A DNA stretch of 64,000 nt. Source: Alphaproteobacteria bacterium. GTDB taxonomy: Bacteria; Pseudomonadota; Alphaproteobacteria; Bin95. How positions within the stretch are numbered: the stretch's first letter is position 1; each line of letters opens with the position of its first letter. Position numbers and translations under genes: made by a program. The stretch covers positions 1,728,001-1,792,000 of the forward strand of contig OZ224045.1 in NCBI GenBank assembly GCA_963665325.3, read 5' to 3'. The notes under the pieces are model-generated. The model saw nothing but the letters and a program-made list of their open reading frames with translations. It had not been told where the DNA came from and made no database searches. This document shows positions 33,040 through 64,000 of this stretch, piece after piece.

Positions 33040-33132
33040 GGGTTCTCGGGCTCGTATCGCAAAGGTGGCGGGGGAATGGAGTGAGCGGGGCTGGCTTGTC
33101 AAGCCGCGGGACCGGGCTTATGAGCCGGGACC

Positions 33133-34308: not shown

Positions 34309-35754
34309 GTCCGGAGAAAGGTCGAGGGCCGCAGCGAGCGCGGCGAGCCGGCGTTCGACTTCCGGGCTCATGAAATCGGGATGGACGAAGAGCGCCAGGG
34401 ATTCCGCCTCGCGCCGCAGCCGGGCTTCCGCGATCCCCGGCGCCAGCGTCATGGCCAGGCGTAGCGCGAGACCGATCGACAAGGCCCGGTTGCGGGCGTC
34501 CTCTTCGGTCAGCGTCCACGCCGGTTTCGTCCAGCCCTGGTCGATGCGCCCGTCGTAGCGCGCCGCCAGCACGAGCCCGAGAAAGGCGCGCTCCGCATGT
34601 TCGATGGCCACGGCCTGGAGCCGGAACGCCCGCATGAAGGCGTGCTCGGCCCGGTAGGAGGGATGCTCCATGCCGGCGATGTCGACGAGCCGGCAGGCCG
34701 CCTTCGCGATACGTTCATCCGCCGGTGAAAGGCCGAGGCCGAGCGCCGAGACCCAGGCCATGAGGGAACCAGGTGTCATGCGCTGGCGGGCGCCGCTGCG
34801 GCCGATGCGGGTGCAGGCGGTGAGCAGGGGGTCCCGCTTGCCGGGCTTCGTGCGCCGGCTGTGCAGCATCAGCCCTTCGCGCAGTCCGGCGCTGGAAAAG
34901 ACGACCCGCTCCGGGACGATGCGGTCGACAAGCTGCAGCATGATCTCGGCGGCGGCCGGCAGGTGCGGCCGGCGCCGGCTGGACACCTGCGTAAGCTCGG
35001 CGAGGCTGCTGTCGCTCATCCGGGTCAGCATGGCGCAGAAGTCGCGCGCCTCGCGGGCCGGCACCGCAAATTGGTGGACGATATCCAGCGGATGGCGGCT
35101 GTGGCTGAGGTAGAGCCGCGCCCAGGCCCGCCAGGAGCCGCCGATGCAATAGAGGCTGCCCGGCGGGTCCGACGGTTGCAGCCAGTCCGTGCGGTCGAGG
35201 CTGGCGGCGACATGCCGGGCGAGGTCCTTGCGGCTTCCTATATCGGCGAGGCGCAGCACGCCCAGCGGAAAGCTGTCGCTGTCGGCGGCGCGCATGTTCG
35301 CGACGCGCACGAGTTCGAGGCTGCCGCCGCCGAGGTCGCCGACGACGCCGGTCGCATCAGGAATGGCCCCCAGAACGCCGCGCGCGCCCGCCATGGCCTC
35401 GTCGGCGCCGCTCAATATCTCGATTTTCCGCTCGCTGATCCGCTCGAGATGGCGCGCGAATTCGGCGCCGTCGCTGGCATCCCGGATCGCCGCCGTCGCA
35501 TAGGCCTCCAGCCTGTCGACATCGAGCAGGGTTGCGACATTGATGAACCGCTGGAACGCCTGCTCCGCGAGCCTGCGCCCTTCCGGGTTGAGCTTGCCGG
35601 TCCGGTTGAGATCGGCTGCGAGCCGGCAGGTCGCTTTATCGTTGAAGAGCGGGCGAAAGCTGTCCGGCCGGCTGCCATAGACCACCAGCCGTACCGAGTT
35701 GGAGCCGATATCGACAATGCCGACCCGTCTGGCGGCCCGCGTCTGCTGCAACAT
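34294..35754 (-). CDS. ppx: Exopolyphosphatase Ppx/GppA
   Basis: DIGSNSVRL, ATAAIRDA, DLGGGSLEL, GLREG; adjacent to ppk1. Confidence 0.92.
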   Translation of the reverse strand: MLQQTRAARRVGIVDIGSNSVRLVVYGSRPDSFRPLFNDKATCRLAADLNRTGKLNPEGRRLAEQAFQRFINVATLLDVDRLEAYATAAIRDASDGAEFARHLERISERKIEILSGADEAMAGARGVLGAIPDATGVVGDLGGGSLELVRVANMRAADSDSFPLGVLRLADIGSRKDLARHVAASLDRTDWLQPSDPPGSLYCIGGSWRAWARLYLSHSRHPLDIVHQFAVPAREARDFCAMLTRMSDSSLAELTQVSSRRRPHLPAAAEIMLQLVDRIVPERVVFSSAGLREGLMLHSRRTKPGKRDPLLTACTRIGRSGARQRMTPGSLMAWVSALGLGLSPADERIAKAACRLVDIAGMEHPSYRAEHAFMRAFRLQAVAIEHAERAFLGLVLAARYDGRIDQGWTKPAWTLTEEDARNRALSIGLALRLAMTLAPGIAEARLRREAESLALFVHPDFMSPEVERRLAALAAALDLSPDLREL

Positions 35755-35771
35755 GCGGTGCGCTTGCCGGC

Positions 35772-37913
35772 CTAGATGGGAGCGGGCAGGGGTTCGGGCT
35801 TCTTGGCCGAACGCTCAATGGCGCTACCGCGACCGGAGAGGCTCGGGTTCGTCATGAAATACTGGTGCGCGGAGAAGGGAGCTGGGCCCGCCTCCACGCG
35901 GGTATAACTGCCGTCCGGGCCGAGCAGCCAGCTCTGCGCCGTATCGTTGAGATTGGCGACCATGATCTGGTCCAGTATCTGGCGGTGGACGGTGGGGTTC
36001 TCGACCGGCACGAATGCCTCGACGCGGCGGTAGAGGTTGCGCGGCATCCAGTCGGCGGACCCGATGAACACCCTGGCTCGCGGTGACGGCAGGCCGTGGC
36101 CGGCTCCGAAGCAGGCGATGCGCGCATGTTCGAGAAAGCGTCCGACGATGCTCTTGACCCGGATGTTCTCCGAGAGGTTGGGAACGCCCGGCCGGAGGCA
36201 GCAGATGCCGCGCACGACCAGGTCGATCTCGACGCCGGCGGCCGATGCGCGGTAGAGCGCGTCGACGACCTCGGGATCGACGAGCGAGTTCATCTTGGCC
36301 CAGATCTGCGCCGGACGGCCTGCCTTGGCGTGGCCGATTTCCTCTTCGATAAGCGCAAGCAGCCTGGGTGCGAGCGTCAGGGGCGAGACGGCGATCTTGT
36401 CGAAACGCTCCGGCTCCGCGTAGCCAGTGGTGTAGTTGAACAGCCGCGTGGCGTCGCTGCACAGGTCCCCGTCGGTGGTGAAGAAGGACAGGTCCGTGTA
36501 GATGCGCGCATTGACCGGGTGGTAGTTGCCGGTGCCGTAATGGGCGTAGCTGCGAAGCCCGTCGGCCTCGCGGCGGACCACCAGCGAGAGCTTGCAGTGC
36601 GTCTTGAGGTCGATGAAGCCGTAAACCACGAGCGCGCCGGCGCGCTCCAGGTTCCGCGCCCAGCGGATATTGGCCTCTTCGTCGAAGCGCGCCTTGAGCT
36701 CCACCAGCGCGGTGACCGACTTGCCCGCCTCCGCCGCCTCGATGAGCGCATCCACGATGGGCGACTCCTCCGAGGTCCGGTAGAGCGTCTGCTTGATCGC
36801 CACCACGTCCGGGTCGCGCGCCGCCTGGCGCAGGAAGCGCACCACGACATCGAAGCTCTCATAGGGATGGTGGACGACGATGTCCTTGGCGCGGATGGCG
36901 GCGAAACAATCGCCGCCGAAATCGCGGATACGCTCCGGGAAGCGCGCTTCGAAGGGCTGGAACAGGAGGTCGGGCCGCCGCCCGTCTATGAGTTGGTCCA
37001 GGTCGCCGAGGCCGACCGGGCCTTCGAGGGTGAACACATCGGCGATCTCGGCGTCGAGCCGCCGGGTCAGCGCCAGCGCCAGGGCCTGCGGCATGCTCGC
37101 GGCGATCGACAGCTGGACGACATTGCCGCGCCGCCGCCGCCGTAACGCCGATTCGAACAGCCGGACCAGGTCCTCGGCTTCCTCCTCGATCTCCATCTCG
37201 CTGTCGCGGATCACGCGGTAGCTTCCGGCTCCCCGCAGTTCGAACCCGGGGAAGAGGTGCCCCAGGAACAGCGCCACCATGTCCTCGATGGCCAGATAGC
37301 GCCGGGCCGGGCCGGGCAGGGCGACGAACCGGTCGAGCATGCCGGGAATCGGCACCAGGGCCTCGAATTCGCGCCCGTCCTCCCGGTAGTACAGGTCCAC
37401 GGCCAAGCCGAAGCCGGAATTGGGAATGAAGGGGAAGGGGTGCGCCGGATCGACCGTAAGCGGCGTCAGCACCGGGAACACGTCGCTCAAGAAATAGGCT
37501 TCGAGCCAGCTGCGGTCTTCATCGGAGAGGGTGCGGTCGTCCACCAGGTCGATGCCGGCCCTGCGCAGTTCGAGCATGAGGCGCCGCCAGCAGGCCTGTT
37601 GGCCGGCCACAAGCTCCCGTGCGCGGCTGTCGACCGCCTCGAGCTGCTGCGCCGGCGTCAGCCCGTCGGCGCTCGGCGTGCGCACGCCCGCGGTTTCCTG
37701 GCCCTTCAGGCCGGCCACGCGCACCATGTAGAATTCGTCGAGATTCTGGGCGGAGATCGACAGAAAGCGCAGGCGCTCCAGAAGCGGGTGGGCCGGGTTC
37801 GACGCCTCTTCCAGCACCCGCTCGTTGAAGGCCAGCCAGGAAACCTCGCGGTTGATGAACCGCGCCGGCGAGTCCAAGCCGGACCAGTCGAATGCGCCTC
37901 CGTCTATCGGCAT
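35772..37913 (-). CDS. ppk1: Polyphosphate kinase 1
   Basis: [53 protein letters not shown]. Confidence 0.97.
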
Positions 37914-38119
37914 GGCGGCATGCGGCTCCTTTGCGACCCCGCGCGGCGGACAATCCGCGCTTCGCACGTCTCCGGCAGCGCGGAAACTTGCGGCGTTTAT
38001 ACACCAACTCGCGAGCGGAAGCGCCCGGCGACATGCGTGCCGCCCTGCGCCTCGGCATCGGTAGCGTTCGCGCGCGCCGTGGGCTAGCTTGTGCGCGTCG
38101 ATCCGATTGGAATAATGGT

Positions 38120-39136
38120 ATGGCGGGTGTCTCTAGGGCCAACGGCCACCGCTTCAAGGGTTTGCAGACGACCGAGAGCGGCGTGCCGGAGAAGCTGCGG
38201 CCGGACCCGGACAAATGGCCCTTCGACCTCGACGAGGCACTGGGAGCGGTGTTCGCTTATCACGCCGATATCCCGGAGGAAGCCTTTACCGCCTCGACGC
38301 TCGGGCAGGAGCGCGAGGGCAATGCCGTCCTGATCGACGACAAGGGCTATTTGCTGACTATCGGCTACCTGGCGACGGAAGCCGACGAGGTGACCCTGAC
38401 CGATGTCGAGGGAACGCAATTCCCCGCCCGTGTGGTCGGCTACGACCAGGTGACGGGCCTCGGCCTGCTCCGCGCCGACGGGCCGCTGGACCGCCGGCCG
38501 GTGACGCTCGGCAGCGTGGACGAATTGCGCGTGGGCGACGAGGCCATTGCGGCCGCGGGTGGCGGCCTCGACGTCGCCATGGTGGTGTCTGTGGTCTCGA
38601 AGCGGGAGTTCGCGGGCTACTGGGAATACCTGCTTGACGAGGCGGTGTTCACCTCTCCGCCGCATCCCCGCTGGAGCGGCGCGGCGCTGATGTCCCGGCA
38701 GGGCGTGCTGGTGGCGATCGGCTCGCTCTATGTGCAGGACAGCCTGCCGGGAGAGCAGACGCGGCCCGGCAACATGTTCGTGCCCGTCGAGCTGCTGCAC
38801 CCGATCTTCGAGGAGCTGGCCGCCTCGGGCCATGCTGCGCGCCCGCCGCGTCCCTGGCTCGGCATGTTCGGCGCCGAGGTCGAGGACCGGGTGGTCATAG
38901 CCGGCCTCACCGATGACGGGCCGGCCGACGATGCCGGGCTCAAGGTCGGCGACCTGGTGCTGGGTGTTGCCGGCGAGCCTGTCGGGGGGCTGTCGGACTT
39001 CTACCGCGCCGTATGGGCGCTCGGGCCGGCCGGAGTGGAAGTGCCGCTGGATGTCTATCGCGACGGGGAACTGGTCCATGTCGCAGTGCATTCGGCCGAC
39101 CGCCGCTCCTTCCTGAAAACTCCCAACCGACACTGA
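38120..39136 (+). CDS. S1C/HtrA-like trypsin-fold + PDZ protein
   Basis: [49 protein letters not shown]...GPADDAGL. Confidence 0.85.
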
Positions 39137-39149
39137 CCGGGTTTCGGGG

Positions 39150-39557
39150 ATGAATGAATCGGAACGCATATACCTGCTGGAACGCCTTGAGCGCCTGGGC
39201 GCGGAGGACGATGCAGACGCGCTGCAGGCGGCGCGGGAACTCGCCGCGCGGGTTTCGGACGGCGGTCTCGACTGGGACGACCTGATCGCCCCGGAGGACC
39301 CGCCGGAAGACGATTTCGCCTCGGACGACTTCGACCTCGAAGAAGGCGGCGAAGACGAGGTGGAAGACGGTCCGCCGCTCGAGGGCGACGGCTCGGCCGA
39401 GATGCAGCTCCTGCAGAAGCTGCTGGAGCGCAAGGGCAATTCGCGCGCGTTGAAGGAGGAACTTCAGGAGATCCGCCGGGACGCGGCCAGCGAAGGGTTG
39501 TCGGATTTGGACCGCCGGTACCTCCAGGCGCTTGCGAAGCGGCTATCCGTCAGGTGA
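39150..39557 (+). CDS. Hypothetical acidic protein
   Basis: Clean ORF co-oriented after the protease; helical ends with Asp/Glu-rich linker. Confidence 0.7.
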   Translation: MNESERIYLLERLERLGAEDDADALQAARELAARVSDGGLDWDDLIAPEDPPEDDFASDDFDLEEGGEDEVEDGPPLEGDGSAEMQLLQKLLERKGNSRALKEELQEIRRDAASEGLSDLDRRYLQALAKRLSVR

Positions 39558-40265
39558 CGCCCCTGCGGGGGTAGCGGGCGCGACATCGGCGGCGGCGGGG
39601 CCGAGCTGCTTTACGAGCCCGTCGATACGGTTCCGCACCGACCCGAGCCAGGCGGCGTCGGCCCCGGAGGCGGCCTCCAGGCCGCGCCAGAGCGCCAGCG
39701 CACCCGTCTCGTCGCCCGATTGCAGGCGTTCGAGCGCCAGATAGTGCCAGGCCTTCGGGTGCCCGGCCTCCCTCCCGAGCGCCGCGCGGAAGGCGGCCTG
39801 CGCCTCCGGCGTGACGATGCCGGCCGACGCTGCGGCCCGCGCTTCGCCGTAATCCGCCAGAAGACCCGCCGGGGCGCCGTCGAGGCCGCCCTCCGCCTGC
39901 ACGGCCCGGGCGAGCGCGTTTGCGGTTTCCTCCGTCCGCCCGAGGCCGCGCCAGGCCGCAGCCAGCACCCGCCAGCCGCGCGCGTCGTCAGGCGCCGTTT
40001 CGAGACGCGCTTCGAGATCGCTGGTTAGACGGAGCAGCTCGGCATGCTGCCTGGTTTCCACATCCCGCGCGCTGAGGGGCATGCCCGGCAGGCCAGGCTG
40101 GCCGATCCAGACATAGAGCGCGAATGCAAGGACGGCCGGCGCAGCGGCAAGCGCCGCGGCCGGCAGGGCGCCCATGCCCGCCCGCGCCAGCGGCCGCAGC
40201 ACCAGCAGGGCCGCCCCTGCCGCCAGCGCGCCGACCGCTGCCCAAAGCCAGATTTCGCCGCTCAC
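39543..40265 (-). CDS. ccmI: Cytochrome c biogenesis TPR protein CcmI/CycH
   Basis: TM helices, LYVWIGQPGLP, TPR PDDARGWRVLA...A. Confidence 0.85.
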   Translation of the reverse strand: MSGEIWLWAAVGALAAGAALLVLRPLARAGMGALPAAALAAAPAVLAFALYVWIGQPGLPGMPLSARDVETRQHAELLRLTSDLEARLETAPDDARGWRVLAAAWRGLGRTEETANALARAVQAEGGLDGAPAGLLADYGEARAAASAGIVTPEAQAAFRAALGREAGHPKAWHYLALERLQSGDETGALALWRGLEAASGADAAWLGSVRNRIDGLVKQLGPAAADVAPATPAGASPDG

Positions 40266-40657
40266 TCCCGCCGCCTGAAATAGCGCAGCGCCAGCAGCGC
40301 CGCGATGGCGGCAAAGCCGGCCGGCGCGAACCAGAGCACCCAGGTTGCCGGCTTCAGCGGCGGCTCCAGCAGCACATAGTCGCCGTATCGGTGCGTCAGA
40401 TAGGCGAGCGCCTCCTCGTCGCTGTCGCCGGCCAGCAGCCTTGCGCGCAGCGACCGGCGCAGGTCCCTGGCGAGGTCGGCGCCCGAATCGTCTATCGACT
40501 GGTTCTGGCAGACCACGCAGCGTAGTGTCTTGGCGAGCGTGCGGGCGCGCGCCTCCAGGGCCGGGTCCGCGAGCATTTCGCTGGCGTCGAGGGCCGCCAT
40601 GGCCGGTGCGGATGCCAGCGTCAGCAGGAACGCCAGCATTGCCGCTGCCCGCGTCAC
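40262..40657 (-). CDS. ccmH: Cytochrome c biogenesis protein CcmH/CycL
   Basis: LRCVVCQNQSIDDS, RYGDYVLLEPP. Confidence 0.93.
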   Translation of the reverse strand: MTRAAAMLAFLLTLASAPAMAALDASEMLADPALEARARTLAKTLRCVVCQNQSIDDSGADLARDLRRSLRARLLAGDSDEEALAYLTHRYGDYVLLEPPLKPATWVLWFAPAGFAAIAALLALRYFRRRE

Positions 40658-41151
40658 CGCCCGAGCGCCGGGAGCAGGTCGAGGCGCACGGCGTCGGGTG
40701 TCAGCGGACCGGTATGCTTGAAGACGACCGCGCCCTCGGCGTCGAGCACGAAGGTCTCCGGCACGCCCGTCACGCCCCACTCGACGCCGGCCCGGCCGTC
40801 CTCGTCGAAACCGATCCGGCGGTAGGGATTGCCGAGTTCGGCGAGGAAGGCGTTCGCGGCCTCGGGCTTGTCCTTGTAGGCGACGCCATAGATGACGACG
40901 CCTTCCTCCTCCGCCAGCTGGGTCAGCAGCGGATGCTCCGCGCGGCAGGGCACGCACCAGGACGCGAAGATGTTGAGCAGCGCCGGGCCCTCGAGATCGG
41001 CGGTCGCGAGGCCATCGACGGCGAAAACCGGCGCCGGGCGCCCGACCAGAGGGGAGGGAACGCGGGAAGGGTCGCCGCCGAGGCCTACATACAGATAGGC
41101 GCCGAGCGCGGCGAACACCGCCAGTGGCAACAGGAACAGCAGGCGTCGCAT
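40654..41151 (-). CDS. ccmG: Thiol:disulfide interchange protein CcmG/DsbE
   Basis: PSPLVGRPAP, FASWCVPCRAEHP, GVTGVPETF. Confidence 0.93.
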   Translation of the reverse strand: MRRLLFLLPLAVFAALGAYLYVGLGGDPSRVPSPLVGRPAPVFAVDGLATADLEGPALLNIFASWCVPCRAEHPLLTQLAEEEGVVIYGVAYKDKPEAANAFLAELGNPYRRIGFDEDGRAGVEWGVTGVPETFVLDAEGAVVFKHTGPLTPDAVRLDLLPALGR

Positions 41152-43118
41152 CAGGCCGCTGCCGGTTGTCGCCGCCGGCGCGCCGCCGGCGCGGCCAGCC
41201 GCAGGCGGCGGTCGCTCAGCGAAATCAGGGCGCCGAAGGCCATGACGATCGCGCCGATCCAGATCCACGGCACCAGCGGGTTGTGGTAGAGGCGCACCGT
41301 GCGGCCCGCCTGCGCATCTTCCTCGCCGATCACCGCATAGAGGTCGGCAAAGAGGGTGGTGCGGATCGCGGCTTCGGTCGTGTGCTGGCGCTCGACGGGA
41401 TAGAAGCGCCGCTCGGGGGTGAGCACGGCCGCCGGTGCGCCGTCCCGCAGCACCGAGAGCATCGCCCGTTCGGCCCGATAGTTCGGCCCTTGGACCTCGG
41501 AGACGCCGTCGAAGCGGATTGCGTAGCCGGCGATCCGGGCCTTGTCGCCGGGCTTCATGGCGAGGATGAGTTCGGACTGGAAGCACTGCGACGCGGTAAT
41601 GCCGGCGACGACGATGGCGACGCCCAGATGCGCAAGGCCGCCGCCCCAGGCGGCGCGCGGCATGGAACGCGCGCGCCGCCAAGCCTCCCCTGCGGGCGCA
41701 CGGCCGAGGCGCAGGCGTTCCGACCACTCGACGAGCGCGCCCAGGCCGATCCAGGCAGCGGCGCCCAGCCCGAGCGCGGCGAGCGTCTCTCCGTAGGCGA
41801 GCGTTGCGCCTGCGGCGAGGGCGGCCCCCAGGGCCGCCAGCCAGAGCCGCCCCAGCGCGCCGGCAAGGTCGCCGCGCTTCCAGGCGAGCATCGGTCCGAT
41901 CGCCATTGCGACCAGCGCCGGGGCGATCAGCGGCACGAAGGTTGCGGCGAAATAGGGAGGCCCGACCGAGACCTTGCCCGCATCGAAGGCGTCTAGAAAC
42001 AGGGGGTAGAGCGTTCCGAGCAGCACCGTTGCGCAGGCGGTGACCAGCACGAGATTGTTCAGCAGCAGCGCGCCTTCCCGCGAGATAGGACGGAACGGAA
42101 CGCCCGTGCCGAGCGCCGGCGCCCGCCAGGCGTAGAGGGCGAGCGCACCACCCGTGGCGATGCCCAGCAGCAGGAGGATGAAGACGCCGCGCTCGGGATC
42201 GGTCGCGAAAGCATGCACCGATGTCAGCACGCCCGAGCGGACCAGGAAGGTGCCGAGCAGGCTCAGCGAAAAGGCGACGATGGCAAGCAGCACGGTCCAG
42301 GATCTGAGCGCCTGGCGCCGCTCGGCCGCGATTGCCGAATGCAGAAGCGCCGTCGCTGCCAGCCAGGGCATGAAGGAGGCGTTTTCCACCGGGTCCCAGA
42401 ACCAGAACCCGCCCCAGCCGAGCTCGTAATAGGCCCACCAGCTTCCAAGCGCGATGCCTGCGGTCAGGCCCGCCCAGGCCGCCAGCGTCCAGGGGCGCAC
42501 CCAGCGCGCCCAGGCCCGGTCCACCCGGCCTTCCAGCAGGGCCGCGACGGCGAAGGAGAACGCCACCGACAGCCCGACATAGCCGAAATAGAGAAGCGGC
42601 GGATGGAAAGCGAGGCCGGGGTCCTGCAGGAGCGGGTTCAGGCCCGCGCCGTCCAGCGGCGGCGGCCAGACGCGCGCGAATGGGTTGGAGGTGAGCAGCG
42701 TGAAAGCCAGGAAGCCCGAACCGATCATCGCCTGGACGGCCAGCACGCGGGCCTGGAGGGTCTTGCGCAGGCCGCTGCCGAACACGGCGACCATTGCGCC
42801 GAACAGCGTCAGGATCAGAATCCAGAGCAGCAGAGATCCTTCGTGGTTTCCCCACACCCCGGTCAGGCGATAGAGCAGCGGCTTGAGCGAATGGGAGTTC
42901 TGCGCCACCGCCGAGACCGAGAAGTCCGAGAAGACATACGCCCTGGTGAGCGCGCCGAACGCGATAGCGGCGAGGAGGAATTGCCCGAGCGCCGTATGCC
43001 TGGCGAGCTCCATCAGCGCCGGCCTGCCCCTGGCGGCCCCGTAAAGCGGCAGTACCGCCTGCAACAGGGCCAGGCCCAGCGCAAGCGCGAGCGCGAAATT
43101 GCCAAGTTCCGCGGTCAC
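41151..43118 (-). CDS. ccmF: Heme lyase CcmF
   Basis: WGNHEGS, FHPP, WAYYELGWGGFWFWDPVENAS, SVHAFA. Confidence 0.97.
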   Translation of the reverse strand: MTAELGNFALALALGLALLQAVLPLYGAARGRPALMELARHTALGQFLLAAIAFGALTRAYVFSDFSVSAVAQNSHSLKPLLYRLTGVWGNHEGSLLLWILILTLFGAMVAVFGSGLRKTLQARVLAVQAMIGSGFLAFTLLTSNPFARVWPPPLDGAGLNPLLQDPGLAFHPPLLYFGYVGLSVAFSFAVAALLEGRVDRAWARWVRPWTLAAWAGLTAGIALGSWWAYYELGWGGFWFWDPVENASFMPWLAATALLHSAIAAERRQALRSWTVLLAIVAFSLSLLGTFLVRSGVLTSVHAFATDPERGVFILLLLGIATGGALALYAWRAPALGTGVPFRPISREGALLLNNLVLVTACATVLLGTLYPLFLDAFDAGKVSVGPPYFAATFVPLIAPALVAMAIGPMLAWKRGDLAGALGRLWLAALGAALAAGATLAYGETLAALGLGAAAWIGLGALVEWSERLRLGRAPAGEAWRRARSMPRAAWGGGLAHLGVAIVVAGITASQCFQSELILAMKPGDKARIAGYAIRFDGVSEVQGPNYRAERAMLSVLRDGAPAAVLTPERRFYPVERQHTTEAAIRTTLFADLYAVIGEEDAQAGRTVRLYHNPLVPWIWIGAIVMAFGALISLSDRRLRLAAPAARRRRQPAAA

Positions 43119-43546
43119 GACCCGTCCGCCTTCCCTGCGCGGCGCAGCGCCTCCGCAGCTTCTGGCGGCATGTAGTTCTCGTCGTGCTTGGCGAGGATTT
43201 GCGTTGCCCGGAAGGCTCGGCCACCGTCCAGGGCACCCATCGCCACGATGCCCTGTCCCTCCCGAAACAGGTCCGGCAGCAGCCCGGTATAGTGGACGGT
43301 GACACCGTGCGCGCCGTCCACGACCCGGAAGCTGACGGATGTGCCGGACCGTTTTAGCGACCCCTCTTCCACCAGCCCTCCGAGGCGGAACTCGCGGCCG
43401 GACGCGACCGCCCCGGCCGCAATCTCACTCGGTGAGTGGAAGAAACGCATCGTGTCGTCGAGCGCTGTCAGGGCCAGCGCCGCGGCCCCTCCCAGAAGTG
43501 CGAGTGCTGCGGCCAGCAGGGCAAGGCGCCGACGCTTAGGACGCAT
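43115..43546 (-). CDS. ccmE: Heme chaperone CcmE
   Basis: RLGGLV, LPDLFREGQG, LAKHDENYMP. Confidence 0.95.
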   Translation of the reverse strand: MRPKRRRLALLAAALALLGGAAALALTALDDTMRFFHSPSEIAAGAVASGREFRLGGLVEEGSLKRSGTSVSFRVVDGAHGVTVHYTGLLPDLFREGQGIVAMGALDGGRAFRATQILAKHDENYMPPEAAEALRRAGKADGS

Positions 43547-45472: not shown

Positions 45473-45667
45473 CGCGACTTCCGATACCGGGTTCCGGAAA
45501 TCATTATCGCCGGAGCCGGCCGGATCGCAAAATAACCGGGGGCCGGGAGGGTTGCATTCGGATTGCCGTGGGCTGCTTCCCTCCAGCGACTGCCCCCGGT
45601 CGCAGCGCAGCCGCACGAATCCCGCCGACAGCGCCGCCCTTCGGGTCGCGCTCAGGCGTCCGCCCTC

Positions 45668-45810
45668 GGCGGCGCTAACGCCGCCATCTGTATGATTTGC
45701 CGCGTTGCGCGCGGCGGCGTAAACGCCGCCATCTGTATGATTTGCCGCGTTGCGCGCGGCGGCGTAAACGCCGCCATCCAAACAAACTGCCGCGTTGCGC
45801 GCGGCGTCGC
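45668..45810. repeat. 45-bp tandem array (3 units + partial), each with an 18-bp hairpin
   Basis: GGCGGCGT-AA-ACGCCGCC stems start at 45668, 45713, 45758 (partial 45803); period exactly 45. Confidence 0.9.
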
Positions 45811-45910: not shown

Positions 45911-46183
45911 TTAGTTCACGGCGTCCTTGAGACGGTTGCCGGCCTTGAAGAGAGGTGTCTTCGAGAGGCCCACGGGAACGGGCTCGCCCGTACTCGGATT
46001 GCGTCCTATATGCGCCGGCCGCGTCCTTACGGAAAACCGACCGAAGCCCGATATGCGCACGACTTCACCGCGGGACAGCGCGTCTCCGATGGTCGCCAGC
46101 ATAGCATTGACCGCATTTTCTGCCGCGGCCTTGTTCAGTCCCGTCCTGTCGGCGACCCGGTTGACCAGATCTGATTTCTTCAT
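45911..46183 (-). CDS. HU-family DNA-binding protein
   Basis: MKKSDLVNRVA, GFGRFSV, GRNPSTGE, FKAGNRLKDAVN. Confidence 0.93.
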   Translation of the reverse strand: MKKSDLVNRVADRTGLNKAAAENAVNAMLATIGDALSRGEVVRISGFGRFSVRTRPAHIGRNPSTGEPVPVGLSKTPLFKAGNRLKDAVN

Positions 46184-53539: not shown

Positions 53540-53947
53540 TCAGCCTGAAGCTGTCTCCAGCGCAATCACACCCTGAAGCGCCGCCAGCCGGCGGTCGAAC
53601 GTATAAAGCGCATCGGCGCCCGACCGCCGCGCGGCGGCCGCGATCATCCGGTCCGCGAAACCGGCGCCGCCCCCGCGATATCCATAGGCCGCGCGGATAA
53701 CGTCATCTCCTGCCTCAAAATGAAGCGCGTCGCCCGAAACCAGCTGTTCCAGCGCGGTCGCAATCCTGTCGCGGGAAAAGCCGTAACTCCGCTCGAGCAC
53801 CCAAACCACCTCCAAGGTGACTTCCCTGCAAACAAAGCCCGGCCGCTCCGGCGTAAGTTGCTCGAGCAGAGAGCGGGCGGCCTCCACCTGCTCCCGGTCG
53901 TCATCGATCAGAAAGCGCAGCAGAATGTTCGTATCGAGCGCAATCAA
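53540..53947 (-). CDS. vapC: VapC-family PIN-domain toxin
   Basis: [27 protein letters not shown]. Confidence 0.9.
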
Positions 53948-54180
53948 CCTTCGCTTGCCCCTTCGGCGATGGCGCGGTCCATATCCTCAAGCGTCACCGG
54001 CGGACCGTCATATGCGAGCATGCCGAAAAGTTCCGAAAGCCGTCTGACAGGCAACAGGCGCACTTCGCCACTATCCATGATGACATAACGCACACGGTCC
54101 CCGGACGAGACCCCGAGCGCCTTCCGGACGGCCTTCGGCAAGGTTGTTTGCCCCTTGGAAGTTATAGCGGAGTCGATCAT
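53944..54180 (-). CDS. AbrB/MazE-type antitoxin
   Basis: ITSKGQTTLPKAVRKALGVSSGDRV; VTLEDMDRAI. Confidence 0.9.
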   Translation of the reverse strand: MIDSAITSKGQTTLPKAVRKALGVSSGDRVRYVIMDSGEVRLLPVRRLSELFGMLAYDGPPVTLEDMDRAIAEGASEG

Positions 54181-57167: not shown

Positions 57168-58703
57168 TCAATCCAGGCGGACGATCCGCCCTTCGACCGC
57201 CGGGGAGACCGGGCCTGCGGTTTCGACGAACTCCATCACCTGGGCAGCCATGAAGGAGCCGTCCTCGGCGCGAATGCGCCTTTCTGCCTTCTCGAACATG
57301 GCGTACCGGTCGCCGCCCCTGGCAAGGAAGTCGTTGGTGGCAAGCGTATAGGTCTTCGCGTCCTCCAGCGGCGCGCCGCCGACGGCGATTTCGACGATAC
57401 GTTTGCCCTTCGGCCTGCTCGCATCGAAGGAGAAGGACAGGCCCGACACATGGGGAAACGCGCCGCTCCCGTTTTCGACCTCGCCAATTCCGTGCTCCAG
57501 GGCTTCCCTGATCCGGGCGCCGGAAAGCGCGAGCTTCACGGTCTTGTTCCCGAACGGCAGTTCGGTCAGCACGAGCTTGCCGGTTACTTCAGAGCCCGCC
57601 GGATAGATTGTATCTCCGCGTATCCCGCCGCCATTGGTGAGACCGATGTCGGCGCCGACGGCGGCCCGCATGGCGTCGGCCACCAGATTGCCGAAAGCGT
57701 TTTCGCCCGCGCGCACCGAAGCGCGGCGCGTGTCCAGTTCGGTCGTCGTCGTGCCGACGGCGATGTCCAGGCTGCGGTCGAGGTCCTTGCGGCGCTTCTC
57801 GACCCTTGCAGCGATCGCGCGGGCGCCCTCGATGTCCGCAGTGGAACGGACTTCGTAGTCCGGCGTCCAGACGACTCGGGTGCCGCCTTTTCCGTCCTCG
57901 ACGCGGTCGAGCACCAGCCGCAGCACGCCGACATAAGCTCCCTGCGAACCCGCTTTCAGGACCGTCTGCCGCCCGTCATACCAGGCGAGGGCAAGATGGT
58001 CGTGTCCGCCCAGCACGGCGTCGATCTTCGCCGATGAGCGCAGAAGCTCCAGGTCATGGGCAAGATCGTTGTGGGTGAGCGCAATCACGAGGTCGGCGCC
58101 GGCATCCCTCAATCCGGCGGCAAGGGCAGCGCCCGTCTCGACGAAGGGGAGGAAAGCGACGTCCTTGCCAGGTGAGGAAATCCTGGCCGTCTGGGGTGTG
58201 ACCAGGCCGAGAATGCCGATCCGGTATCCGCCATGCTCGACAATCGTGGTTGCCGCGGTTCCGGGAAAGTCGGCTCCGTTCCGGTAGCGGACATTGCCCG
58301 CAAGCCACACCGCGTTCGACTGCGCGAGCCGCTCCTTTAGGACATCGGGGCCGAAGTCGAATTCGTGATTGCCCGGCACAGCGACATCGAACCCGATGGC
58401 GTTGGCGAGTTCGATCATGTGCTCGCCCTTGTCGAGCCCGGATAGCAGCGATGGCGAAATCATGTCGCCGCCGAAGGTGGCTATGGCGAGCGCGCCTTCC
58501 GCCTCGGCGCGTTCGCGCTCTGCGGAAACGACTGCTGCGATCTTTGCGGCCCCGCCCCGGCCGTCCACACCCTCCATGCGGTCCCAGTCGTTCACATGGA
58601 TGAGCGTGACGGCGACCGGTTCCGCGGCTGCGGGCGCGCCCAACACCGGGAGTGCGGCCAGCACGGCGGCGGCAAGAGCGAGCGGGCGATAGCGTCCGGA
58701 CAT
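57168..58703 (-). CDS. Periplasmic 5'-nucleotidase / metallophosphatase
   Basis: Signal peptide; HVND, GGD, GNHEFD, GGHDH, NGGGIRG, LPFGN, VSGL, FLARGGD. Confidence 0.92.
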   Translation of the reverse strand: MSGRYRPLALAAAVLAALPVLGAPAAAEPVAVTLIHVNDWDRMEGVDGRGGAAKIAAVVSAERERAEAEGALAIATFGGDMISPSLLSGLDKGEHMIELANAIGFDVAVPGNHEFDFGPDVLKERLAQSNAVWLAGNVRYRNGADFPGTAATTIVEHGGYRIGILGLVTPQTARISSPGKDVAFLPFVETGAALAAGLRDAGADLVIALTHNDLAHDLELLRSSAKIDAVLGGHDHLALAWYDGRQTVLKAGSQGAYVGVLRLVLDRVEDGKGGTRVVWTPDYEVRSTADIEGARAIAARVEKRRKDLDRSLDIAVGTTTTELDTRRASVRAGENAFGNLVADAMRAAVGADIGLTNGGGIRGDTIYPAGSEVTGKLVLTELPFGNKTVKLALSGARIREALEHGIGEVENGSGAFPHVSGLSFSFDASRPKGKRIVEIAVGGAPLEDAKTYTLATNDFLARGGDRYAMFEKAERRIRAEDGSFMAAQVMEFVETAGPVSPAVEGRIVRLD

Positions 58704-58824
58704 GACGTGCTGTCCCTTTCCAGTCCACCCGATATATAGGCCCGATCGTCCGGCGGGGCAGGTGTCCTTCGGAACCGGACATGGCGGTCGGGCGCGACCG
58801 GGCTCTCAGGCTGCGTCCAAATGT

Positions 58825-58836
58825 TCCAACGTTGGA
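58825..58836. promoter_or_regulatory. Perfect 12-bp palindrome upstream of 5'-nucleotidase
   Basis: TCCAACGTTGGA. Confidence 0.35.
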
Positions 58837-59090
58837 CAGGAAAACATTGCCGTCAGCGGATAAATTGCCGATTCGCCGGATCTCGCGGCGAATGGAGTGT
58901 TTTCATTGAGAAAATTGCGAAGCGCGCCGGCCTTCGAATCATGGATTCCCGATACATGAGACACCGGGCAGCGCACCTGCGGTGCTAAGGCCTTGATGTA
59001 GCGTTTGTTTTTCCTCGTGCAATCGCAGGTTCGGGGCGGAGATGCAAGTGCATTTTCCCCCGCCTGCAACAGAGTGCAGGAGGAATATCC

Positions 59091-60212
59091 ATGGCGAATG
59101 TCCGCCTCAACGAGAGCCGGATCGAGGCTCTCAGGCCCCGCAGGTCGCCCTACGATGTCCGCGATGCAGAGCTGAGAGGCTTCGGCGTCCGCGTCCTGCC
59201 CACGGGCGCCAGGCGGTTCTTCATCCACAGCCAGCATGAGGGCCGGCGTATCTGGAAGACCGTCGGCGACGCTGCCGGCATGGACCTGGAGGAGGCCCGC
59301 CGGCGCGCCACCGAACTGCTGGCCGCCATCCGCCGCGACGAGACGCCGGCGCTTGCCGAAGACAGGCTCTTCGAGACTGTGGCCGACGAGGTCTTCGCCC
59401 GCTACGGGCGGCACTGGAAGCCCGGCACCATGAAGGTCAACCGCAACTATCTCCGCAACACGATCCTTCCCCGGTTCCGGGGACGGAACATCGCCGATAT
59501 CCATCGGCAGGACGTGCAGCGCTGGTTCGCCTCCCTGCACGCCACGCCCGTGGCGGCCGACCGGTCCGCGCCTATCCTTTCCGTCATCATGCGACAGGCC
59601 GAGCTCTACGGTTACCGACCGGAAGGCAGCAATCCCTGCACCGGCATCCGCCGCTACCGGCGCAAGGGACGCGAACGCTTCCTGTCGGAGCCTGAGCTTC
59701 ACCGTCTCGCGCGGGTTCTCGACAGCCATGAGGAGCGCCGTCCATGCAAGGCGGCGTTCATCCGTCTGCTGCTGCTCACCGGCTGCCGCAAGAGCGAGAT
59801 AGCGACCCTCCAGTGGTCCGACTACCGGGAGGGCCGCCTGTTCCTGCGCGACGGCAAGGCGGGGCCCCGGACCGTGTGGCTGTCCTCGCCCGCACGCCAT
59901 GTCCTGGAAGGATTGCCGAGGCAGGGCAAATGGGTCTTCCCCTCGCCGCAGCGCCGGGGGCCGCTCTCCACGGCGATCTTCGAGGCCTTCTGGCACCGGG
60001 TCCGGGAGGAAGCGGAGATTGCCGATGTTCGCCTCCACGATTGCCGTCATACATACGCCAGCATCGCGATCATGCAGGGCGAGAGCGTCACGACGACCGG
60101 GCGGCTGCTCGGCCACAACGATGCGCGAACCACGCTGAAATACACGCACCTGTCCGACCGTTCGGTGCGCGAGGCAACCGATGCCCTCGCCGCCATTCTC
60201 GGGGAGGGCTGA
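59091..60212 (+). CDS. Tyrosine integrase with N-terminal arm-DNA-binding domain (copy 1)
   Basis: RBS AGGAGG; GFGVRVLPTG arm domain; TGCRKSE, DGK, LHDCRH, LLGH, TLKY. Confidence 0.93.
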   Translation: MANVRLNESRIEALRPRRSPYDVRDAELRGFGVRVLPTGARRFFIHSQHEGRRIWKTVGDAAGMDLEEARRRATELLAAIRRDETPALAEDRLFETVADEVFARYGRHWKPGTMKVNRNYLRNTILPRFRGRNIADIHRQDVQRWFASLHATPVAADRSAPILSVIMRQAELYGYRPEGSNPCTGIRRYRRKGRERFLSEPELHRLARVLDSHEERRPCKAAFIRLLLLTGCRKSEIATLQWSDYREGRLFLRDGKAGPRTVWLSSPARHVLEGLPRQGKWVFPSPQRRGPLSTAIFEAFWHRVREEAEIADVRLHDCRHTYASIAIMQGESVTTTGRLLGHNDARTTLKYTHLSDRSVREATDALAAILGEG

Positions 60213-60215
60213 GCG

Positions 60216-61412
60216 GTGCCGAGACGCAGGAGGCTGACCGACGCCGGTATTGCAAGGCTCCGCCCGGAGGCGCGCGAATACACGGTCCGGGATACGGTCG
60301 TCGCCGGTCTCGGCGTGAGGGTTCGCCCCTCCGGCAGCCGGATCTTCATCTACCATCGCAAGACGGATTGCGGCGTGAAGAAGATGTCCTTCGGTCCGGC
60401 GCGGCTGCGCAAGGTGGAGGAGGTGCGCCGCGCCTGTCTTGCGGTGGCGACGGTCGAGGCGGATGAGGGTGAGCGCAAGGCCGCACCGCTGTTCCGGGAT
60501 TTCATCGCCGGGCCCTGGAAAACGGCCCGTCTGGACCGCTGCAAGCCCTCCACGCAACAGAACTACCGCAATCTTCTGAAATACCACCTGCTGCCGGCGT
60601 TCGGCTCCCGGCGCCTCGACCGGATTACCCGCAGCATGGCGCTCGGCTGGTTCGAGAGATGCAGCAGCACCACGCCCGCATACGCCAACCGGGCCTTGGC
60701 CCTGCTCGGACAGATCCTCAACCATGCCATCGCTTGCAGCCATATCGGGACCAATCCGGTGCGCGGCACAAGACGCAATCCCGAGGCCCGGCACACCCGC
60801 TTCCTCGCCCGCGAGGAGATCGCCCGCCTTCACCGCGTCCTCGACCGGTATGCCGAAGGCTTCCGGTCGCAAGCCCGGCAGGCCGATATCGTCCGCCTGC
60901 TGCTGCTCACCGGCTGCCGGAAGAACGAGATCGTTCGTCTCCACAAGGACGAGGCGAAGGGCGACCGGCTGGAACTCAGGGACAGCAAGACGGGGCCGAG
61001 AACCGTCCTGCTGAATGCCCGGGCGCGGGAGGTTGTCGAGCGCCGCATGGCGGAAAGCAACAGCCCCTGGGTATTTCCCTCTGTCCGGGATCCGTCCCGT
61101 CCCCAGGACGACACGTTGCCGCTCTGGTATCGCATCCGGTGCGAGGCCGGCATCGAGGATGTCCGCCTGCACGACCTTCGCCATACGGTAGCCAGCCAGG
61201 CCGTGCTGAACGGCGTTCCCCTGCCGGTTGTCGCCCGACTGCTCGGTCACAGCGACGTGCAGATGACCATGCGCTACGCGCATGTCGGAGACCGCGAGGT
61301 CGAGGCCGCCGCCGAGCGGGTCGGGCAAGTCATCGACACAATCATGAACCGGGGACGCAACTGCTGCCTCAATGGCGGCGATCCCGAGAACCTGTCCGAC
61401 TGCTCTCAGTGA
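60216..61412 (+). CDS. Tyrosine integrase with N-terminal arm-DNA-binding domain (copy 2)
   Basis: GTG 3 nt after int1 stop; GLGVRVRPSG; TGCRKNE, DSK, LHDLRH, LLGH, TMRY. Confidence 0.93.
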   Translation: MPRRRRLTDAGIARLRPEAREYTVRDTVVAGLGVRVRPSGSRIFIYHRKTDCGVKKMSFGPARLRKVEEVRRACLAVATVEADEGERKAAPLFRDFIAGPWKTARLDRCKPSTQQNYRNLLKYHLLPAFGSRRLDRITRSMALGWFERCSSTTPAYANRALALLGQILNHAIACSHIGTNPVRGTRRNPEARHTRFLAREEIARLHRVLDRYAEGFRSQARQADIVRLLLLTGCRKNEIVRLHKDEAKGDRLELRDSKTGPRTVLLNARAREVVERRMAESNSPWVFPSVRDPSRPQDDTLPLWYRIRCEAGIEDVRLHDLRHTVASQAVLNGVPLPVVARLLGHSDVQMTMRYAHVGDREVEAAAERVGQVIDTIMNRGRNCCLNGGDPENLSDCSQ

Positions 61413-61475
61413 TCGGAACACCATCGGTGCGTCAGGTGTGAGAACCACGCGCCGAATGGCAGGCTAGGCACTCCG

Positions 61476-62005
61476 TCAAAAGGTCTTCGAAATTCCAAGT
61501 ATGGCACCATGGTTGCGCCAGGCATTGACGGGGATACCGGACCGGTTCCATTCGTAGAAATATCCGATATACGGGGCGAATCCTTGGAGTTGCAGCGCGG
61601 GGGGAGCAGGTTCACCGAGACGCGCGTCTGCCGGTCCGAGCGCGTCTTTCCGAAGAGGGGGTCGCTGCCGTCGTAGCGCCGCCAATGCATGGCCATTCGA
61701 GGCGAGATGGAGAGGCCGTCTGCGAAGGCATGGGAGACCCCGAAAGCGGAGCCGCCAAGCCGGCTGCCGTGACGGTCCTCGCGGGCATCGACATGTTCGA
61801 GGTCGAGTTCGACTGGGAACGTCATCCGGGAGTCGAGTGCGTAGTCAAGGCCGGGCCGCAGGGTAACGGTCCAGCCGTTCAGCCCGGGATGGTCCGGATC
61901 GCGGCGCTCCGCGCTGAGCGCGGCGTCGAGCCGCAAGGCCGGCAACAGGCGCACGCGGCCGCGCACCCAGGGGCCGATCCCGTCGCTGTAGCACTTGCCG
62001 CCTAG
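61476..62005 (-). pseudogene. Slam (DUF560) outer-membrane translocon C-terminal fragment, frameshifted
   Basis: RRYDGSDPLFGKTRSD then frame change at G6 run 61599-61604 to LQLQGFAPYIGYFYEWNRSGIPVNAWRNH...ISKTF*; no N-terminal part. Confidence 0.75.
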
Positions 62006-62450
62006 CCATCGTCGGCAACGGCTGGCGCAACCCCGTGAAGAAATATTGGTTCGACCACAAGATCGTGGACGGTGTGACGGTCGCTGCGAAGAGCGCCAAC
62101 GAGCGCGAGATCGACCCGGGCAAGCAGGTCGATGCCGCCCGCCAGAAGATCGCCTATTGCCACGCCGACGCCATGCCGCCGCGCCGGCCCGTTACGCCCC
62201 GACACCACCCGCAGGCGGCGAAGACGGGGACGGGGAAGGTGGCGGGCCCGCCGCCAGCCCCTACGGGAAGGGCGGGTGACGTAACCGATCATCGACCGGA
62301 CTCTCGCCGGCCTTGCAACCGGAAAGACCCCGTCAGGCTGGCCCCGGGGTTCAGGTTCGCTGCGCGGAGGTCACGAGATTCGAGGTAACTCGTTCATCGA
62401 TTGCAGGATAGCCTATAGATAGGGCAGGATTGCCTCGGGGGGAAGCGCAA

Positions 62451-63206
62451 ATGGTGGAACATTTTGCCGGCGTGGTCGGCGGGCTCGGGCTGTTTGTCAT
62501 CGGAATGTGGTTCCTCACGGAGAATCTGAAGAAACTGGCGAGCCGGCGGCTGCGTCGAACCGCGCAGCGCCTGACAGGGCATCCCCTGAGCGCCTTCTTC
62601 TGGGGCGGGCTCGCCGGCGGCGCCACCCAGAGCATGACCGGACTGGCCTTTATCGTGGTCAGCATCCTGCGCTCGGGGATGATTACAACGAAGAGCGCAT
62701 TCGCACTCATTCTCGGCGGCGGCGGCGGCGTGACGCTTCTCGTGCTGGTCGTCACCTTCGACGTCAGGATTGTTGCACTGTTCGTGCTCGGCCTTTCCGG
62801 CTTTTGCCTGACCAGCAAGTCCCTGTCGAAATACCGCCGGGCCGCGGCGGCGTTCCTCGGCGGCGCCATGATTGTTTTCGGGCTGACCCTGCTGAAGGAG
62901 TCAGCGGCGCCGCTGGCCGACCAGCCCTGGTTCCGGGATATGATGGCGGGGGCCGGGACTTCGCCGCTGCTTGCGTTCCTGGTCGCGACCGGGCTGACAG
63001 CCGCCGTGCAGTCTTCAAGCACGGTATCCATATTCGGCATCAGCCTTTCCGCTGCCGGGGTCCTCACCATAGACCAGACCATAATGGTCATTTACGGCAC
63101 CTTCATCGGGTCGAGCGCCGTCATGTACATCCTCTCGGCGAACCTGACCGGCCGGTCCCGCCAGGTCTCCATGTATCTGGTGTGCCTGACCTATCAATTT
63201 TCATGA
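62451..63206 (+). pseudogene. Na+/Pi cotransporter family protein, 3'-truncated
   Basis: GGLGLFVIGMWFLTENLK, TQS and VQSSS repeats, GTFIGS; ends abruptly in low-GC DNA without remaining TMs or PhoU domains. Confidence 0.8.
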
Positions 63207-63370
63207 CTATAGGAACACCTTTTGGTTGAAGCGCTGCTTTCCTCGAAGGGTAAGGAACAGTAGGGGATTGCGGGGGTCAATGCAAGTCTCTTGTGTCAAG
63301 ATAATGCTGTAGGTTAATTGGATGTCTTGGGCATTGCACTTGCAAATTGGGGATTTTGTAGGTCTGGACA
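63183..63370. mobile_element. Possible MITE-like low-GC insert
   Basis: Imperfect terminal IR GCCTGACCTATCAATT / TCCAGACCTACAAAAT (rc), 11/16; begins where the Na/Pi gene breaks. Confidence 0.35.
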
Positions 63371-63662
63371 GGAGCACCGCACACGGTGCCGAAAGCACCG
63401 GGTGCGGTGTCTTCGAGTGCTGACCATGGGACCATGGCGCCCGGCATGGTGTCCATCGTGGCGCCCATGGGCGCTGACCGTGGGACCATGATGCAAACAC
63501 GCGGTTTCATGGTAGCGCCCGGGCTTCATGTCGAGGAAGCGCATCGGGTTCCCCTCCGGGTGTCGTGTTGTGGGTGCTGGCCTTGTGGGGTCGCGGATGA
63601 TAATAGACGACACCATGGGGCGCCATGGTGACATGGATACTTCATTGATGCGGTGCTCCTGT
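63368..63662. repeat. IR-bounded CATG-rich repeat region (oriT/iteron-like)
   Basis: 14-bp perfect IR ACAGGAGCACCGCA at 63368-63381/63649-63662; 18-bp direct repeat 63419/63473; palindromes 63461-63474 and 63611-63630. Confidence 0.75.
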
Positions 63663-63716
63663 GTTTCACCAGGAAACAGCCATGTCGATCCTGTGTTTCA
63701 TGGTAGGAGAAAGCTC

Positions 63717-64000
63717 GTGACGGCGAGTGATGGCAGGAAGAGGCCGCGCTCGGTGATGGCGACCGACAGCGACTGGCGCCTGATCCGCAGACGCGCGGAC
63801 AAGGCCGGAATTTCGACATCCGAGTTCCTTGTTGGCCGCGGGCTCGCGCCTGCGGCGGCGGCGGCGGAGAGTGCGGACGACCTGCCCCTTGCCGTGAAGC
63901 GCCGGGCGGCGGTGGACCTGCGCCTCCTGGTGCTGGCCGAGCGACTGCGGTTCGAAGCCGGGGGGCGAGGTGGCGTCTGGCAGCGGCTTGTGGAGGAAGC
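63717..64000 (+). CDS. Ribbon-helix-helix MobC/MobA-like protein (runs off window)
   Basis: RBS AGGAGA, GTG start; RKRPRSVMATDSDWRLIRRRADKAGISTSEFLVGRGL fits the RHH pattern; open to 64000. Confidence 0.6.
   Translation, partial: MTASDGRKRPRSVMATDSDWRLIRRRADKAGISTSEFLVGRGLAPAAAAAESADDLPLAVKRRAAVDLRLLVLAERLRFEAGGRGGVWQRLVEE

Follow-up and report, generated by a model that had tools for sequence, protein, structure and literature searches.

A tandem pair of arm-binding tyrosine integrases heads an apparently undescribed family of integrative elements

Arm-binding tyrosine integrases are commonly treated as solo enzymes. What, then, do two of them do when they are encoded back to back at the head of one island? 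The locus that raises this question lies in a 64,000-nucleotide stretch of an alphaproteobacterial genome (the window; contig C1 of genome G000). The gene that always comes first, intA (59091..60212, + strand), starts with ATG and encodes a 373-aa arm-binding (PF13356) tyrosine integrase; the gene that always comes second, intB (60216..61412, + strand), starts with GTG and encodes a paralogous integrase of 398 aa with a diverged arm domain. The initial annotation, made from the window alone, described two clearly diverged paralogues 3 nt apart, each with a full R-K-H-R-H-Y set, and it holds on all of these points: the two open reading frames are on the same strand at the expected spacing, the proteins are 38% identical over 376 aligned columns, and all six catalytic residues can be placed in IntA (R233, K256, H316, R319, H342 and Y351) and in IntB (R235, K258, H319, R322, H345 and Y354). 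Nor does a tRNA lie beside the pair, as had been stated; the only one in the window is at 41646-41743. Two other points stand in part. The ribosome binding site of intB was said to lie on the intA stop codon; the Shine-Dalgarno-like GGAGG (60203-60207) does overlap the 3' end of intA, falling within the last sense codons just before the stop. An arm domain was assigned to both proteins, and IntA matches Pfam Arm-DNA-bind_3 above the family cut-off, while the N terminus of IntB gives no match to this family at E<=0.001; since it can be aligned to the IntA arm domain from residue 5/6, we read it as a diverged arm domain, and for IntB the assignment holds by this alignment only.

The pairing is not peculiar to this locus. 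The best 80 of 466 loci retrieved from species genomes are largely of one genus and largely kin, with metagenome-assembled genome (MAG) titles that name Alphaproteobacteria, Defluviicoccus, Rhodospirillales, Rhodobacterales, Chloroflexi/Dehalococcoidia and Acidobacteria. Among these best 80, a full intA with room beyond it is followed by intB in 70 of 73 cases, and intB is preceded by intA in 71 of 72; the exceptions to the A-then-B order are L114, L127 and L130, the last of which is split by a 3.4-kb insertion. The distance from the intA stop to the intB start is 3 nt in 58 of the 70 pairs and nowhere falls outside the range -4 to +3, a narrow spacing that is not due to chance. In the tree the IntA sequences form one clade (support 100/99) and the IntB sequences another (100/100), with mirrored branching, and the six catalytic residues are invariant in 63/63 IntA and 63/63 IntB sequences at a mean divergence of 34-39%. 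The co-occurrence in fixed order and the reciprocal clades anticipated for the pair are thus both found. The pairwise distances of IntA and IntB are also correlated (r=0.93; permutation maximum 0.11), which shows co-inheritance only, because kin share history.

Single integrases related to the pair do exist: in a class-wide search 23 of 29 loci are singletons, distant relatives at 31-42% identity. They form a separate clade (support 100), and the view that the pair does not belong to a group of mostly single homologues is thereby upheld. Related pairs also occur on plasmids of cultured bacteria. Matches were found in 40 plasmid records, and of 14 examined, 13 carry the tandem pair and one a singleton; the hosts of the pairs are Shewanella (three), Vibrio (two), Photobacterium, Aliivibrio, Aurantiacibacter, Novosphingobium, Polymorphobacter, Sphingobium, Paracoccus (pTAV1) and Leisingera, and both order and spacing are constant from Alphaproteobacteria to Shewanella and Vibrio. 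When a phylum-wide sample was queried with a Shewanella IntA, one of 401 genomes matched at E<=1e-60, namely the present one, so the family is patchy. A quick tree of 67 rows, thinned from 82 by leaving out ten singletons and five rows that were partial or atypical, unites the second genes in a clade of 21 rows (support 96) and the first genes in a weakly supported one (71), and in this tree another type of pair, Q1-Q2, is nested among singletons (95 within a clade of 100). Judged from the tree, Q1-Q2 is a separate duplication, in which pairing would have arisen a second time, independently, from a singleton. At G000:C1:615368-620207, C3:1061876-1065348 and L061:10001-13359, a Q1-Q2 pair comes after an integrase gene, either A or Q1, that is broken off around codon 258-260, and this second paired family seems, by the sequence of these loci, to insert into integrase genes. 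Separately, L110 and L116, whose MAGs bear the labels Alphaproteobacteria and Dehalococcoidia, resemble each other in their flanks and have left ends that are 99.4% alike, which reflects either cross-phylum transfer or mis-binning.

The initial annotation had proposed that the att site could be defined by aligning flanks to an empty site, and this proved to be the case. In a relative, G011, the sequence that corresponds to C1:1786972 is joined directly to that of C1:1798165 (G000 coordinates), which maps both island ends; because the flank match stops and resumes at these points, the pair starts 119 bp inside an 11,204-bp island, of which the window covers the left 5 kb. The left attachment site, attL (58961..58972, + strand), is a 12-bp direct repeat made up of an ACAC core, a 7-nt spacer and a C, and its copy, attR, is at G000:C1:1798165-1798176, about 6.2 kb beyond the window end. 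The first element-derived bases (58972..58985, + strand) comprise CGCACC plus an inverted repeat, GCACC-N3-GGTGC, which is a candidate core half-site. The arms of this repeat are the same as those of the R388 oriT hairpin, as judged against the nic sequence in the available part of PMC4176350. In 90 left ends, which were selected with a pattern containing the GCACC inverted-repeat motif itself, the arms are GCACC/GGTGC in 63 and GCATC/GATGC, with symmetry kept, in nine; symmetry is broken in the others (16 GCACC/GGTTC and two GCACC/GATGC). Next to the repeat is a putative IHF site (58986..58998, + strand), called by a motif match to the IHF consensus. Such a site occurs in 53 of the 90 left ends, always at an offset of 14-16, as compared with a mean of 4.1 and a maximum of 9 in shuffled sequences, an excess that is inflated because the pattern used to select the ends overlaps the first bases of the site. 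Alignments further delineate a conserved leader (59000..59090, + strand) with a T-tract, TGCAA repeats and the intA ribosome binding site. The leader motifs are also present at the right end, and the TGCAA repeats are candidate arm-type sites.

The rest of the island consists of cargo and of traces of other elements. A SlipAM-like outer-membrane protein fragment (61406..61966, - strand; weak Pfam match) is a cargo remnant, 88% identical to a 436-aa protein in island p694, and the gene is longer in sister islands. A Na+/Pi cotransporter gene (62451..63183, + strand; Pfam) is cut off at an ACAC-core junction; in a homologue at C1:1197813 the match is exact as far as the ACAC core and coding sequence runs on beyond it, so a sister element once inserted into the cargo. 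What follows is a second, inverted right end of such a sister element (63179..64000, - strand; ACAC at 63180-63183, with a different spacer), which contains ribbon-helix-helix (RHH)/NikA-like genes; the inverted copy, counted from 63183, extends over 1587 bp and shares 93.7% identity with the true right end of the island, and the 11.2-kb island has two sets of RHH/NikA-like genes. A 264-aa protein inside the island (L001:9437-10231; G000:C1:1793437-1794231) combines Arm-DNA-bind_3 with a low-complexity linker and a hydrophobic carboxy-terminal segment and has no recombinase domain. A third, Xer-like tyrosine recombinase (L001:11253-12254; 333 aa, no arm domain) is encoded 5.8 kb from intA-intB on the opposite strand and is followed by three small related ORFs. 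No relaxase or type IV secretion system (T4SS) is found between the att sites of the 11,204-bp island, which is a decayed, relaxase-less member of its family.

A repeat search of 58600-63600 returned nothing beyond paralogue and chance repeats, sigma-70 scans of both island ends gave no site at the tool's threshold, and contigs of four public runs compared with the island gave no circle or empty-site joint among the 15 listed of 46 joints; no RNA data set was listed among the public runs. By eye, an outward-facing promoter-like arrangement (a -35-like hexamer, 17 nt and a -10-like hexamer) is seen about 70-105 bp inside the right ends of this island (G000:C1:1798060-1798095) and of p694, p260, s81 and p777; in a circle, transcription from it would enter intA, and the one end scanned has no site at the tool's threshold. 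Elsewhere in the window, a small AbrB-like/PIN-like gene pair on the - strand (53540-54180) is, by eye, a likely toxin-antitoxin system, and three near-tandem repeats (45563-45790) lie just upstream of a SulP-like transporter ORF and adjoin an HU/IHF-like gene (45911-46183).

The same genome holds ten intact A-B pairs, one pair with a frameshifted intA, four truncated intA genes without intB, and one intB separated from its intA. The left-end motif occurs 15 times, in 14 cases 118-130 bp before the intA start and in the fifteenth before the frameshifted intA. A perfect-repeat search gave right ends for three of the 15 left ends, the other known right ends were found by right-end homology, and eight of the 15 are unpaired. 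Both ends are known for six islands, which are 11-58 kb long, and one 40-kb island has a 99.5% identical copy at a second site. Unlike the window island, four of its sisters have a relaxase or T4SS inside the att sites, the criterion for an ICE or mobilisable island: p260, p1508 and p777 carry a TrwC-like relaxase and s81 carries F-type tra genes (all recognised from sequence, not by a family scan), and two islands have neither. Islands that lack any relaxase have the same ends as those that bear one. No gene next to the pair is common to the six islands compared, and thus no shared excisionase candidate emerges. Taken as a whole, the family consists of integrative elements of about 8-60 kb that include ICEs, relaxase-bearing mobilisable islands and decayed islands. 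The distinct element class proposed at the outset is therefore recovered in the form of a dedicated two-integrase module with mappable att sites.

The targets of these elements are diverse. The 90 left ends fall into 80 flank clusters with 72 different spacers, and the part of the target common to them is ACAC(C); the bases to the left of ACAC are unconserved. The spacer after ACAC is 7 nt long in 61 ends, 8 in 21, 6 in seven and 5 in one, a count that excludes ends without ACAC (3/62 in one set). For insertions whose empty site is also present in this genome, agreement of the left junction with the target extends to roughly base 5-6 of the spacer. Spacer bases 1-6 are the same at both ends in 15 of 19 independent two-ended elements and differ by one or two mismatches in four, as tallied by hand after one orthologue was dropped, with two right ends in the set having been found via the repeat itself and two elements having their ends on different contigs. 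Single-base spacer differences could be later mutations. Three of the mismatched elements have a known empty site, and in each of them the target spacer is kept at a single end, the right end in two elements and the left in the third; the deviant end of one of the three, L175/L149, has the spacer of its sister copy, L174/L148. Copies that are 98-99% alike occupy unrelated sites, with spacers that differ at 3-4 places. Spacer similarity at unrelated sites averages 1.6 of 5 for elements of >=95% identity (n=5), 2.4 for 90-95% (n=18) and 1.3-1.4 below that, and since it barely rises with element identity, the case for a homology preference rests on the counts of equal left and right spacers. The overall pattern fits the overlap region of a tyrosine recombinase, in which homology would be favoured, some mismatch tolerated and the spacer free to drift. 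Such a mismatch and drift pattern has been measured for GInts, as the accessible portion of PMC5385486 describes, and a more extreme tolerance in the overlap is described for IntDOT in that of PMC2817482. Some targets are themselves repetitive. A REP-like repeat with TGTCATG units is the site of insertion in the right flanks of L148, L149 and L143 and the left flanks of L174 and L175, and in G005 four insertions on as many contigs (L170-L173) have one left flank and one spacer in common, which indicates that their target is itself a multi-copy element.

The plasmid members from Shewanella differ in that they share one target. The megaplasmid of the laboratory strain S. oneidensis MR-1 and two plasmids of S. 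baltica carry islands of 11.0, 9.3 and 8.2 kb that are headed by the pair, with bacteriocin, type I restriction and retron cargo and the ACAC-type repeat; the MR-1 island (NC_004349.1, about 32329-43341; SO_RS22330/22335) is an intact 11-kb family member with both ends mapped. Their empty site is present on plasmids of OS185 and OS195, and on its opposite strand a hairpin is followed by the F nic sequence (13/13; nic as given in the available text of PMC3074121). The plasmids concerned are typed MOBF/MPF_F, and all three islands occupy this common site at the F-type oriT nick. Among the plasmid pairs, empty-site support is confined to the Shewanella sites; ACAC is also visible upstream of several other plasmid pairs, and it was not counted because a 4-mer is expected by chance in 330 nt. 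The right ends of the Shewanella islands (L195:21320-21951, L196:25998-26492 and L137:22330-22846) contain three tandem 210-240-bp units that each close with an att-like core, the spacer varying slightly from unit to unit. The motif TGCCACCTT is present in about six copies in these right ends and again ahead of the intA ribosome binding site; it is a candidate arm site, and the tandem units may represent an accretion of right ends.

We regard it as nearly certain that intA-intB is the element's own recombination module for integration and excision. In the best reading of how it works, which we consider reasonably probable, IntA and IntB act together in a XerCD-like heteromeric synapse, much as the initial annotation had suggested. 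That annotation had not recognised the surrounding island, the looseness of the ACAC(C) targets, an overlap that tolerates mismatches or a left end built like an oriT. Recombination between the ends would excise a circle whose attP would read right end-ACAC-spacer-CGCACC-left end, and an IHF-bent complex would form on the subterminal arm sites suggested by the motifs. Within one synapse, one subunit would occupy the ACAC half-site and the other the element-specific half-site, and each would exchange one strand pair. A target would need to offer ACAC(C) and a 6-7-nt spacer that resembles the circle's own, and one or two mismatches would leave unlike junctions, so that element spacer and target range would drift from hop to hop. 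Translational coupling, as seen in the gene layout, would hold IntA:IntB near 1:1. A predicted IntA-IntB complex lends this weak support: it scores 0.57 (best control 0.00), with contacts that agree by at least 78% between runs and a partner pLDDT of at least 80. The mark set for this score was reached by 116 of 157 solved complexes and two of 215 mismatched pairs, 18 of the former and both of the latter doing so at <=0.60. The score may reflect likeness to solved recombinase multimers; among matches to solved structures only generic recombinases were found.

A possible, though appreciably weaker, alternative is a division of labour in which a homotetramer of one paralogue integrates and one of the other excises, replacing Xis, with different arm sites for each. 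It explains the obligate linkage, the mirrored trees and the two intact active sites equally well as a heteromer does, and it is further favoured by the diverged arm domain of IntB, by two kinds of subterminal motif seen by eye and by the lack of a neighbour gene shared by the six islands, as an excisionase would be. However, tight translational coupling would make both enzymes together, which suits a heteromer better, and the two attP arms are unlike each other. That a MOBF relaxase makes the junctions at nic-like sites, leaving some other task to the integrases, appears improbable, despite left ends with the anatomy of an oriT (core, hairpin and IHF-like site), the 13/13 match of the Shewanella empty site to the F nic region and a TrwC-like gene in up to four of six annotated islands (by sequence). 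Such an enzyme would be expected to leave a fixed donor spacer at the left end, and the 90 ends instead carry 72 spacers, usually that of the target; moreover, the distance from junction to intA is constant, even where an island lacks a relaxase. According to the available part of PMC4176350, recognition by a relaxase involves the bases from hairpin to nick; here these bases vary with the target, which makes a relaxase an unlikely inserting enzyme. Finally, the frequency of singletons among the distant relatives could be taken to mean that two independent islands are stacked at one site or that the second gene is a redundant duplicate. We give this next to no credence: the singletons keep to their own clade, the pair has one left end, the 3 nt between the genes contain no att site, and neither gene order nor spacing changes between Alphaproteobacteria and Shewanella or Vibrio.

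Comparison with known systems places the family near several of them and within none. GInts are ginABCD genomic islands (PMC5385486), and SEs carry intA-tfp-intB-srap and move by strand-biased copy-out without an empty site (PMC10214605), as far as the available text of these papers goes. On the same partial basis, the family resembles both in its left-end multi-recombinase operon, variable cargo and AT-rich right end, in imperfect direct repeats of 10-13 bp and in a heteroduplex spacer that alters the attachment site. In contrast, GInt and SE operons have four genes, three integrase-like and a small fourth, versus two here; no GinC/Tfp or GinD/Srap partner follows intB, and the next gene varies among the six islands and the plasmid members. 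Furthermore, in the text available, GInt proteins are modelled on Cre/Xer, unlike the P4/SXT-type arm domain here; target choice in GInts and SEs is limited to one or a few sites, as opposed to at least 80 sites in this family (with one site in 3/3 plasmids for the Shewanella branch); and GInts and SEs are called non-mobilisable, whereas this family has relaxase- and T4SS-bearing members. By domain content (Arm-DNA-bind_3, SAM and a catalytic domain with RKHRHY, ~380 aa) the proteins are like the IntSXT/P4-type integrases in the part of PMC8138268 available, and the IntA-IntB family branches beside singletons of that type. Those enzymes are, in the same text, solo and typically found at tRNA or other conserved genes, unlike the fixed pairs and loose sites seen here. 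IntDOT of CTnDOT is likewise arm-binding, uses many targets and tolerates overlap mismatches with identity required beside the first cut, and differs in being a single integrase (PMC2817482, available text). Adjacent, co-oriented tyrosine recombinase genes that are all needed or kept together are known from Tn554 and RIT elements, in the available part of PMC3414803; Tn554, however, has an arm-less 611-828-aa recombinase, an ordinary one and TnpC, versus proteins of 373 and 398 aa and no conserved third gene here, and RIT elements have a trio of arm-less simple recombinases, versus an arm-domain pair. IntA and IntB, like XerC and XerD, are paralogues about 38% identical with both active sites present, and XerCD is the template for the proposed synapse; however, they score 47-60 against NCBIfam XerC/XerD cut-offs of 330-335 and have the arm domain that XerC and XerD lack. 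XerC and XerD are encoded by unlinked genes and serve a housekeeping role at dif. The coupling sequences of Tn916 also allow many targets and overlap mismatches, with a single integrase. Mismatch tolerance here looks narrower than that of IntDOT and Tn916, because most junctions are fully matched. In sum, the family is akin to GInt/SE by its layout and the drift of its att sites, to CTnDOT/Tn916 by its loose targeting and, as proposed, to XerCD by its chemistry. Searches of the open literature, supplements and subscription papers aside, gave no account of the family or of integrase insertion at oriT, and the available portions of PMC9229058 and PMC5587801 do not describe it. As a family of integrative elements with two integrases it is real and, it seems, undescribed.

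The Shewanella site invites a further proposal, which we put forward tentatively as a rather unlikely one: that the att site is a conjugation origin which the element has borrowed. The pair would have evolved to insert at F-type (MOBF) nick sites, its left end would have kept the core, hairpin and IHF site of an oriT, the target rule would have relaxed to ACAC(C) in the window's lineage, and attP would possibly double as oriT. On the Shewanella plasmids, insertion would then leave the plasmid oriT intact at attR, and the recipient would receive the island ahead of all other DNA. At attL the relaxase would meet a second nick site, where it could stop and free the island alone as a circle, which the integrases would then insert. 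No separate oriT is evident by eye upstream of four relaxase genes. On a Vibrio crassostreae plasmid a lytic transglycosylase gene (L205:11205-11648) lies just left of the pair's left end; the F oriT is adjoined by such a gene, and the neighbour fits insertion at oriT. If the proposal is true, the heteromeric integrase of the window's lineage would be one that now roams the chromosome.

A duplicated pair kept across two classes of Proteobacteria, together with a second origin in Q1-Q2, offers a natural test of what drives recombinases to become heteromeric. The family carries defence, restriction, bacteriocin and surface-protein genes, and it constitutes a major, unannotated cause of gene disruption in some genomes, which have 9-23 of its left ends. 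In addition, a recombinase that needs a core of 4-5 bases and a near-matching spacer might be steerable through a change of spacer.
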